A stretch of DNA of 61,105 bases, the filler included, from an uncultured virus (IMG/VR IMGVR_UViG_2049941000_000171) (Duplodnaviria; Heunggongvirae; Uroviricota; Caudoviricetes). It is 24 parts of one record of this genome, joined end to end, with 100 filler letters (N's around TTAATTAATTAA, not from the genome) between each part and the next. Parts side by side here need not be neighbours in the genome. Positions count along the whole stretch, not along the records: positions 35,090 to 37,206 come from IMGVR_UViG_2049941000_000171; positions 37,307 to 38,625 come from IMGVR_UViG_2049941000_000171; 22 more parts are not named here. One strand, written 5' to 3'. The notes beneath the pieces are model-generated. The model saw only the letters and a program-made list of their open reading frames with translations. It ran no database searches and had not been told where the DNA came from. Both the position numbers and the translations under genes were made by a program. This document shows, piece after piece, positions 37,084 through 38,360 of this stretch; positions within the stretch are counted from its first letter, which is position 1; each line of letters begins with the position of its first letter.

Positions 37084-37310
37084 TAGTTTCTTATAAAATT
37101 TTTGTAGAAGTTTTAGTCAGCAAAGAGCAGAGCCAAGCGTCCAAAGAAGAGGCTCGTCGGAAATTTCTGACAACTCGTCGTCAGCAGAAGAGCTCGTCTT
37201 CATCTANNNNNNNNNNNNNNNNNNNNNNNNNNNNNNNNNNNNNNNNNNNNTTAATTAATTAANNNNNNNNNNNNNNNNNNNNNNNNNNNNNNNNNNNNNN
37301 NNNNNNTAGT

Positions 37311-37339
37311 TTGCACCTTATGCGGAAAAAGTTTACTGT
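37311..37339 (+). promoter_or_regulatory. Early promoter of the HGA-free cassette
   Basis: TTGCAC-17 bp-TACTGT followed by TTCCTTAAC (CCTTAAC also follows the 33106 and 37055 -10 boxes). Confidence 0.6.
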
Positions 37340-37411
37340 TTCCTTAACGCAAAGGGCAAAGCCCAAACTTCCTACCACCTAAACACGGCGCAACAGCCAA
37401 AGGGCAAAACA

Positions 37412-37639
37412 ATGGAAAACAGCAACAGCTTTTACATGCTAACAACTCCGCTTGCAGGCGGGTACTTTCCTTTCCGGCAAGGCAGCGTTTGGCATTGCTT
37501 GGAAAACGGCAAGCAAGCCCAAAGCCTGCCTATACAAATTGGCCCTTGCAAGTACAGGCAAAGCGTACTGGATAGCAATGTTTGCTTTGCCGTTGCAAAG
37601 GACATTTGGGACAATACTTGGGCAAGGCGCATTGCCTAG
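37412..37639 (+). CDS. Small hypothetical protein (75 aa) in the HGA-free segment
   Basis: ORF after the promoter; every Glu/Asp codon is preceded by a G-ending codon. Confidence 0.55.
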   Translation: MENSNSFYMLTTPLAGGYFPFRQGSVWHCLENGKQAQSLPIQIGPCKYRQSVLDSNVCFAVAKDIWDNTWARRIA

Positions 37640-37676
37640 CAACAGCACACAAGGGAAACGCAAAGGAAGGTGGAAA

Positions 37677-37961
37677 ATGGCATACATTCCTAGCCTAGTT
37701 TTGGACGGCAGCACCTATGCGGAAAACGTGCTGGCAAGCGTACAGCACAAGCCCTTCCCTGCAACGGCAAGGGAAGCAAAGGACTACTGGCGCCAGCTGC
37801 AAACGCTTTTCCGCAATGCAAGCAAGCTTGGCAAGCTGTACGGCAACAGCCAAAGGGCAACGGCACACAAGGCAGCAACGGCAAAGCTGGCAGCGCTTGC
37901 TTTCCAGTGCTTGCTCCACACTGCCAAGCTTGCCATACAGGAACGGCAAGGCCAAGCCTAG
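37677..37961 (+). CDS. Small hypothetical protein (94 aa) in the HGA-free segment
   Basis: RBS AAGGAAGG; MAYIPSLVLDG..QERQGQA*; followed by a terminator. Confidence 0.65.
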   Translation: MAYIPSLVLDGSTYAENVLASVQHKPFPATAREAKDYWRQLQTLFRNASKLGKLYGNSQRATAHKAATAKLAALAFQCLLHTAKLAIQERQGQA

Positions 37962-37970
37962 CAAACAGCA

Positions 37971-38360
37971 CAAGCCCAAAGCTCCAAGCACACAAGCCCT
38001 TCCCACAAGGAAGGGCTTTTTGCGTTCCTGTACTGCAAGGCACACTGGCAGCCAAGCTCCAAGCCCAAAGCCAAGCGCACCCAAGGGCAAGGGCAACAGC
38101 ACCCAAGCCAAGCGCAACGGCAAGCCCAAAGCTCCAAGCCCTGCCAGCTAGGCAAGCCCTAATCCAGCCAAGCTCCAAACGTGCAAGGGAAGCGCACCCA
38201 AACATGCAACGCGCAAAGCCCTTGCACAATAACACAGAAGGTGCAAAACGTGCTACCGCGCAACCCTACCGCGCAACCCCGCAAAGCCAAGCAGAGCAAA
38301 CGTGCAACGCGCAACAGCAAACGCGCAAACGTGCAAGGCAGGGAACGTGCAAGCCAAGCC
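37971..38360 (+). repeat. Non-coding C/A-skewed array of short direct repeats
   Basis: CAAGCCCAAAGCTCCAAGC at 37971 and 38121; CTACCGCGCAACC tandem x2 at 38253-38278; AACGTGCAA at 38178, 38299, 38328, 38344. Confidence 0.75.
37994..38021 (+). terminator. Intrinsic terminator
   Basis: AAGCCCTTCC-CACAA-GGAAGGGCTT-TTT. Confidence 0.8.

Follow-up and report, generated by a model that had tools for sequence, protein, structure and literature searches.

Sequence-specific guanine modification by DpdA-type systems has been described in phage CAjan, whose DpdA modifies at GA and GGC (PMC7544227), and in phage Iggy, which is modified at GA only and in which ∼3% of the sites are unmodified (PMC10484667). 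By 2023 such specificity had been reported for one DpdA (PMC10516641), and Iggy has since been added. Phage survival in T5 and BF23 depends on defence sites specifically in the first-entering region of the genome (PMC10644984), and in some Autographiviridae, too, it is only sites in the leading, first-injected region that matter (PMC12455610). The locus considered here lies in a 61,105-base stretch of DNA (the window) from the uncultured virus IMGVR_UViG_2049941000_000171, a cattle-gut siphophage encoding a DpdA-type guanine-exchange system. One of its contigs carries a zone of 929 bp, within a cassette of small genes, from which the word HGA (A, C or T before GA) and its reverse complement TCD are entirely absent.

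The pre-early (FST) region of T5 and BF23 resembles this cassette in its small, variable genes of mostly unknown function, in a freedom from recognition sites that in those phages decides survival and in the non-coding repeats that follow (PMC10644984). The two have no sequence relationship, and what is avoided differs: T5 avoids ordinary host restriction sites of 4–8 bp, partially and in a host-specific manner (PMC10644984), whereas in the cassette a 3-nt word is missing from both strands over at least 2 kb and is apparently the phage's own protected motif. The sequencing depth of the cassette is not doubled and gives no sign of terminal repeats, and two-step entry from a genome end, as in T5, would be conjecture here. 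The leading region of Autographiviridae is likewise one in which the location of a motif, and not its genome-wide count, matters, and it is highly variable and carries anti-defence genes (PMC12455610); there, however, one or a few bipartite Type I sites of a T7-like podophage are at issue, bases are not modified and no short word is excluded altogether. With CAjan and Iggy the present phage shares a DpdA homologue together with FolE and QueE, and the implication of a short G-containing motif ending in A. It differs from them in that the inferred motif omits GGA and GGC, in the presence of a glycosyltransferase and a second radical SAM gene nearby, and in that modification is deduced from sequence statistics and not from chemistry or sequencing. 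Searches of open-access main texts turned up neither a motif-free island nor a specificity for HGA nor a deazaguanine decorated with sugar. Site-free leading regions are already known; what appears to be new here is a site-free, leading-type region that is free of the phage's own motif.

The HGA-Free Zone and Its Conservation

The window is composed of 73 pieces joined by 10-N gaps, variable runs of N and 100-bp spacers of the form N44-TTAATTAATTAA-N44 (5,204 N altogether), and both HGA and TCD were scored on the given strand. A first-pass annotation of the window had described a segment of ∼930 bp lacking these words, and a recount of 37307..38235 agrees with it: AGA, CGA, TGA, TCT, TCG and TCA are each found 0 times, all 16 GA lie within GGA and all 17 TC within TCC. 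The exceptions it had placed at 38236 and 38293, both AGA, are indeed the first to the right of the zone and the only two in the 142 bp that extend to 38377, and the return to normal usage it had put at ∼38378 is matched by 26 HGA/TCD in the next 248 bp (105/kb). Each of the other 72 pieces of the window holds 59–124 HGA/TCD per kb. The proposed limits of the zone, which has no strand, held in part: the right edge is conserved in a relative (see below), whereas the left start at 37307 is the first base after a TTAATTAATTAA spacer, and thus a contig end with no standing as a biological boundary.

Chance does not readily yield such a segment. Dinucleotide-preserving shuffles of the zone (n = 1000) contained a mean of 24.3 HGA/TCD and a minimum of 17, and mononucleotide shuffles (n = 1000) a mean of 82.0 and a minimum of 55; by strand sense, 11.5 HGA and 12.9 TCD were expected and 0 of either observed. 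Synonymous-codon resampling of the two small ORFs of the zone, ORF1 (37412..37639, + strand) and ORF2 (37677..37961, + strand), using the codon usage of the bin and 5000 trials each, gave means of 13.7 and 15.7 sites, respectively, with a minimum of 4. The 274 bp of non-coding DNA located 3′ of ORF2 (37962-38235) also contain 0 sites, as compared to 6.2 expected from dinucleotides and 21.1 from composition. GGA occurs in the zone at the level expected from composition (16 versus ∼16), and TCC (17) likewise meets expectation, so that the excluded word is HGA rather than GA, and GGC, the second motif of CAjan, is not avoided (33 GGC, 28 GCC). Because both strands, all frames and the non-coding as well as the coding parts are covered, the constraint acts at the level of DNA, in keeping with the earlier view that it was not a protein-level rule. 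Avoidance of CRISPR protospacer-adjacent motifs or of primase sites, targeting of TC by cytosine deaminases, and codon-level causes were also considered, and none of them fits a strand-symmetric exclusion of HGA/TCD that spares GGA and TCC.

The zone is also scarce in 6-bp palindromes (7 versus 21.2 expected; observed/expected ratio [O/E] 0.33) and contains no GATC. Its given strand is rich in A and C and poor in T (A 286, C 276, G 222, T 145) and is skewed in individual words, with 0 GAG but 6 CTC, and 0 GTC but 4 GAC.

A scan of JGI metagenomes returned a single related locus, L001, a 2,000-bp contig whose ORF2 is 78–79% identical to that of the window, and both ORF2 genes are HGA-free. The sole HGA/TCD of L001 is found at position 1993, in the site TAACACAGAAGGTG homologous to that at 38236 of the window; its first 1,992 bp hold 0, against 49.6 expected from dinucleotides (minimum 34) or 180.5 from composition (minimum 146). 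The L001 zone is similarly depleted in 6-bp palindromes (15 versus 36.0; O/E 0.42). Upstream of ORF2, L001 carries a different gene, of 193 aa and partly low-complexity. Cassette gene content varies between relatives, and the exclusion rule persists.

An assembly from another study (X4) provides a 3,535-bp contig that covers 37344-38625 at ∼92% identity with 88 differences and, since this one contig spans both, establishes that the zone and its normal flank are contiguous. When the 40 of these 88 differences that were listed were applied to the window sequence, one apparent HGA/TCD arose, at a listed deletion, whereas random sets of 40 substitutions created 10.2 new sites on average and 0 of 2000 sets created none. 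At the protein level, 21 dipeptides have no HGA/TCD-free encoding, and they occur 0 times in 18 ORF2-family proteins, which are kin and not 18 independent tests, as against 229/5164 in the long ORFs of the bin. Together these comparisons indicate that the rule is kept by selection, and not by descent alone. The probable source sample (X1) furnishes a 2,513-bp contig that covers 37307-38357 and extends 1,462 bases further upstream, and a further assembly, X9, matches parts of the stretch only. No match was obtained by blastn of the zone contig against GenBank phages and PLSDB plasmids or by tblastn of ORF2 against phages, and no relatives were detected in protein-guided IMG/VR scans (with ORF1, ORF2 and the ORF2 alignment) or in a scan of GTDB genomes.

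Palindrome Avoidance and Guanine-Modification Genes

The split between HGA and GGA that defines the zone can also be detected in different DNA, namely in the palindromes of the bulk genome. In the 54.5 kb that remain when 37207-38377 are removed, and relative to an order-2 Markov expectation, the 64 six-bp palindromes are avoided overall (354 observed, 783 expected; O/E 0.45). The 10 words that contain HGA/TCD occur at their expected frequency (85 observed, 80.7 expected; O/E 1.05) and the four GAnnTC words nearly so (48 and 55.4; O/E 0.87), whereas the 48 words without GA are depleted (217 and 607.4; O/E 0.36) and the two GGA-only words almost absent (GGATCC 0/19.0 and TCCGGA 4/20.9, in sum 4 observed and 39.9 expected; O/E 0.10). 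Words with an O/E below 0.4 (expected at least 4) make up 2/13 of the HGA/TCD and GAnnTC classes and 29/45 of the others (Fisher p = 0.003), and in a model that includes GC content the HGA term amounts to +1.27 ln units (p = 0.0008). Among 168 motif definitions scanned, each a base subset plus a dinucleotide, [ACT]GA ranks first, with a ratio of 2.75. Observed and expected counts for GATC in its four contexts were 8/113 for GGATC, 129/97 for AGATC, 56/52 for CGATC and 89/74 for TGATC. On the simplest reading, HGA-containing sites would be shielded from restriction and need no avoidance, and GGA would give no shield.

The deficits in palindromes and in GGATC point to heavy restriction pressure from the host or hosts; very strong ones are those of CCATGG (0/27), GCATGC (0/30), AGGCCT (1/23), TGCGCA (0/16), AGCGCT (0/12) and CAATTG (0/15). 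Avoidance of palindromic restriction sites is generic in phage genomes, and the present phage shares it, with a strong deficit of 6-bp palindromes (O/E 0.36–0.45 in the bulk and 0.33–0.42 in the zone). In contrast to generic avoidance, the deficit is switched off for HGA/TCD palindromes, and the word excluded from the zone is a non-palindromic 3-mer, far below any known restriction site in size.

The guanine-modification genes of the phage are encoded on the minus strand. The DpdA-like fragment (26260..26760), of the tRNA-guanine-transglycosylase-like type, matches phrog_887 (E 9.6e-24), and over 115 aa it shares 37% identity with the DpdA of CAjan (E 2e-23); it finds 960 library proteins at E ≤ 1e-10, the best at 68% identity, and has no match in Pfam or NCBIfam. 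Directly upstream of it is a glycosyltransferase group 1 fragment (26764..27129), and a second radical SAM protein of 386 aa (28070..29227), with weak likeness to B12-type methyltransferases, possibly represents a further hypermodification step. Judging from its gene content, the DpdA-like/glycosyltransferase/radical SAM cluster (26260-29227) could make an undescribed 7-deazaguanine derivative. A QueE-like radical SAM gene, in two fragments (15091-15432 and 14399-14635) across an N gap, occupies 14399..15432, and a fragment of GTP cyclohydrolase I (FolE) lies at 15660..16091.

The zone contig has no word of 16 nt or more in common with the rest of the window, and its linkage to these genes was followed through a DnaT_2-like gene (43687..44337, + strand), homologues of which occur on contigs tied to the zone or to ORF2. 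An 11,308-bp contig of X1 overlaps 38438-38625 and continues rightward, and a protein 100% identical to the DnaT_2-like gene of the bin is found on a contig of the same length as this one that abuts the zone. Homologues with 98% and 90% identity come from contigs that measure 26,561 and 31,228 bp, respectively, which are also the lengths of the contigs with the ORF2 homologues P0010 and P0006; the sameness of the contigs in all three cases is inferred from equal lengths. The overlap and the homologue-bearing contigs agree with the first-pass assignment of the zone contig to the genome of the dpdA phage, and we take it to belong there. Where one contig carries both, ORF2 has diverged further than the DnaT_2-like protein (∼79% versus 98%), as expected of a fast-evolving accessory region. 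DnaT_2-like homologues also sit on contigs of 72–81 kb, from which the complete genome of the lineage is probably ∼75–80 kb, larger than the 61-kb window.

Organization of the Cassette and Its Surroundings

The zone and its right flank of normal density form one contig (37307-38625, 1,319 bp), and the cassette, conserved yet fast-evolving, is built of small, apparent transcription units on one strand, in each of which a copy of a repeated motif precedes a small ORF with a strong ribosome-binding site and a terminator closes the unit; all features described are on the plus strand. The upstream motif, TTGCACCTTRTGYGGAAA, is promoter- or operator-like in appearance and is present in one copy (37311..37328). 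In L001 it recurs three times (at ∼155, 274 and 1254), once with TATAAT after it; its form there is TTGCACCTTGTG(C/T)GGAAA, and several terminators accompany it. It is this motif that had been annotated at first as a promoter, an identification that was not upheld by a sigma-70 consensus scan, in which no promoter was called on the window contig and one on L001 (a 10-of-12 match in the repeated motif). The 4 loci returned by an IMG/VR scan with the upstream motif all have normal HGA density and are therefore regarded as chance matches, and no regulatory motif common to the zone contig and other pieces of the window was found.

ORF1 (75 aa) is lineage-specific; its one homologue is 93% identical, and it falls into none of the Pfam or PHROG families. 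ORF2 (94 aa) is preceded by a strong Shine-Dalgarno sequence, AAGGAAGGTGG, and its family falls into 9 clusters of 57–100% identity; a three-helix fold is predicted for it (pLDDT 85), with no PDB match at E ≤ 0.001. Searches of Pfam and PHROGs with the cassette ORFs (ORF1, ORF2 and the L001 ORF) yielded nothing significant, and all ESM Atlas matches were below 0.9 and serve as leads only. The TAG stops of both ORFs and the exclusive use of AGC for serine, as first annotated, were borne out (Ser AGC 11/11, though TCC is allowed), and in the proteins encoded within 37412-37961 lysine is always AAG (10/10) and glutamate always GAA (5/5). The additional ORF of L001 (383-961) contains long low-complexity runs of N, A, T, K and S. 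This suggests that the zone proteins may have been shaped, or even born, under the DNA constraint. One RNA run (X20) contains a 151-nt contig on ORF2 (37774-37924, 3 differences), which does not show transcription.

An intrinsic-terminator-like hairpin with a T run is located 3′ of ORF2 (37994..38028). It is followed by an array of 10 same-strand copies of AACGTGCAA (at most 1 mismatch; 38178..38352, 175 bp), which straddles the right edge of the zone and includes both of the lone AGA (38236 and 38293), the former in the site TAACACAGAAGGTG that is conserved in L001. The array is iteron-like and could be a candidate origin, operator array or entry-control site; the edge region shows no unusual folding (z = -0.71). 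The normal-density flank (38378..38625) contains an ORF start at 38562, the ORF running off the contig, and upstream of it are three direct repeats of TCACAGAATTTCT (38416-38501; one with 1 mismatch) spaced by ∼36 bp, with TATAAT after the first. The repeats at 38416-38501 coincide with a break in the Logan assemblies. On the other side of the zone, the preceding piece is divergently organized at 37003-37206, with a minus-strand gene starting at ∼37005 and a plus-strand ORF that begins at 37078, is normal in HGA content and continues into the spacer; provided that the pieces stand in their true order, the left boundary of the zone would fall in unseen DNA between 37206 and 37307.

Elsewhere the window encodes tailed-phage structural proteins (a Mu-like portal, MuF, large terminase, tape measure, tail tube and tail proteins) and functions in replication and nucleotide metabolism (SNF2 helicase, RecA-like protein, PolA, primase, dCMP deaminase, dUTPase and a UDG-family protein). 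The closest GenBank phages reach merely ∼25% identity, in one tail protein, and sequencing runs that contain this sequence are bovine-gut metagenomes from 11 studies. Across 10-N gaps in 38726-41959 the portal is followed by the MuF-like gene and then by the large terminase, which normally precedes the portal; this terminase is without ∼87 N-terminal profile positions, and the order of pieces in the scaffold may be unreliable. A homologue of the ArdA-type anti-restriction proteins (32348-32764, - strand; Pfam E 7.4e-11) is encoded in the replication module, outside the HGA-free cassette.

Possible Roles of the Cassette

It is proposed that the DpdA-type system of this phage replaces or decorates guanine in HGA, that is, G not preceded by G, and that selection keeps the cassette free of 5′-HGA-3′ on both strands. 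The cassette would then be the sole part of the packaged genome without a modified base, would be shielded from restriction by sequence alone (no GATC, few palindromes) and would have to work at the very start of infection. As a whole, HGA as the motif of G modification and the cassette as a selected unmodified island provide the best explanation, which we hold to be right by a narrow balance of probability. Its firmest component is that G is modified at HGA and not at GGA, which the two sets of word statistics make probable; the cassette would consequently be unmodified in virions. For a role of the cassette in early or leader expression the chances appear evenly divided. Its purpose might be that the leader lacks a mark sensed by modification-dependent host defence, or that modified bases get in the way of RNA polymerase or other proteins of the host. 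Defence sensing fits somewhat better because the exclusion covers both strands and continues beyond the terminator. Hindrance of polymerase fits because a −35-like TTGCAC avoids the TGA of the consensus TTGACA, but transcription alone would not need exclusion on the non-template strand or beyond the terminator.

Several further observations count against this explanation. The first is the case of other modified phages, in which the first-pass annotation had proposed, as a check, to look for similar islands; that check fails. CAjan and Iggy, in which GA modification was determined by experiment, have no GA- or HGA-free island, their longest HGA/TCD-free runs being 108 and 171 bp, and neither does the dpdA-bearing locus G001 (52.7 kb, 66% complete; DpdA homologue of 38% identity), where the longest run is at most 64 bp; in 37 IMG/VR loci, G001 among them, it is at most 212 bp. 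Modification by itself therefore calls for no island, and the island is specific to this lineage rather than general among GA-modifying phages. Of the earlier interpretation, HGA as a special motif is strengthened by the exemption of its palindromes in the other 54.5 kb, while generality across dpdA phages has fallen; the bulky group, the first reading by host RNA polymerase and the first-ejected end that it had suggested stay conjectural.

The palindrome method has weaknesses of its own. Applied to CAjan and Iggy, the same scan misses GA ([ACGT]GA ranks 37th and 42nd of 168, with ratios of 1.25 and 1.15, against a best motif ratio of 1.6), and overall avoidance there is weaker (O/E 0.70–0.73); since these controls missed GA, the sensitivity of the method is unproven. 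Some GA-free palindromes escape avoidance as well (AAGCTT 32/29, ACATGT 16/16, CTGCAG 27/32), and the GGA-only class consists of two words only. The deficit in GGATC, by itself, could be explained by a host enzyme that recognizes GGATC. Type IIS enzymes with this recognition sequence exist.

Other adverse points concern the phage itself. Beyond the statistical character of the evidence for modification, a scan of 31 minus-strand ORFs did not reveal the preQ0-pathway genes QueC and QueD, to which the many gaps of the window (5,204 N) may contribute. In X1 the zone contig and its neighbour were sequenced to similar depths (14.6 versus 17.8), and the few sigma-70 matches in the window contig (0) and L001 (1) lend no support to early expression.

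In a bolder version of the same explanation, sequence-programmed modification at HGA would cloak the whole genome apart from a single opening left on purpose. A DpdA of new specificity, sparing GGA, would place a probably sugar-decorated 7-deazaguanine at ∼1 base in 12 of virion DNA; a rapidly diversifying cassette of at least 2 kb written in an HGA-free 'dialect', its proteins restricted to codon paths without HGA, would be the only DNA that host proteins encounter unmodified on entry; and the modification state would serve as an epigenetic timer or entry checkpoint, the leader being read or tolerated at first and the remainder dealt with once the leader's products have acted. The motif of an uncharacterized modification could then be read from sequence through islands that are free of the phage's own motif. 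We regard this version as speculative and rather unlikely.

Of the alternatives to an unmodified island, avoidance of a nuclease survives best, improbable as it appears. A nuclease specific for HGA/TCD, either of the phage, with host DNA as its target, or of the host, would cut unmodified DNA, the bulk of the genome being shielded by modified HGA and the cassette by the absence of sites, for instance if the cassette has to work when newly replicated and as yet unmodified. A strand-symmetric exclusion that includes non-coding DNA is what such an enzyme would impose, and the bulk genome does treat HGA as a protected word. Viral enzymes that cut or nick frequently at degenerate 3-nt sites include the CCD nickase of chlorella virus and T4 endonuclease IV, which acts at TCA. 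With HGA modified in the virion, however, modified sites would keep the cassette just as safe, which leaves no reason for an island, and if ∼3% of the ∼4,600 sites were unmodified, the level of Iggy (PMC10484667), the outcome would be lethal; no candidate nuclease was identified.

A cis-acting region for replication origin, packaging or entry control, in which modified G would disturb protein contacts and the small ORFs would be passengers, has a slim chance of being correct. It draws on the 10 same-strand AACGTGCAA-like repeats at the right edge, on the three further repeats at 38416-38501 and on the conservation of the first-AGA site. A cis site, though, needs no exclusion of at least 2 kb that covers conserved upstream coding sequence, both of the lone AGA fall inside the repeat array, which is itself placed at the edge, and the folding of the edge is, as noted, unremarkable.

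A constraint on RNA or translation, or a local mutational bias, in place of selection on double-stranded DNA is very improbable. All ORFs lie on one strand, which is strongly A+C-rich, and the constant use of AGC for serine despite the permitted TCC, like the imbalances between GAG and CTC and between GTC and GAC, reveals an additional strand-specific bias. Against this, the two sets of excluded words are exact reverse complements and each is absent from the same strand, the rule extends to all frames and non-coding parts with GGA untouched, and the same HGA/GGA split recurs in the bulk palindrome statistics, a property of DNA. A mis-binned zone contig, derived from some other genome or element, or an artefact of sequencing or assembly, which its status as a separate 1,319-bp piece sharing no 16-nt word with the rest of the window and the shortness of most homologue-bearing contigs (0.7–3.8 kb) might suggest, is largely refuted by its presence in the assemblies of several studies (X1, X4, X9 and L001), by the conservation of the encoded protein family, by the length matches to contigs with the bin gene (11,308, 26,561 and 31,228) and by the occurrence of the same HGA/GGA rule in the rest of the bin.

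If the cassette is indeed an unmodified island, sequence alone would predict that a guanine-modifying enzyme of a phage has a new target, HGA but not GGA, that a modified genome contains a deliberately unmodified island, and which genes must act first. Two independent signatures, a motif-free island and motif-dependent exemption from palindrome avoidance, may together offer a cheap computational handle on uncultured phages that carry modification genes. The finding also bears on whether heavy DNA modification has a cost at the start of infection, through modification-dependent defences or through interference with host polymerase, and the small proteins of the cassette become candidates for anti-defence or take-over functions.

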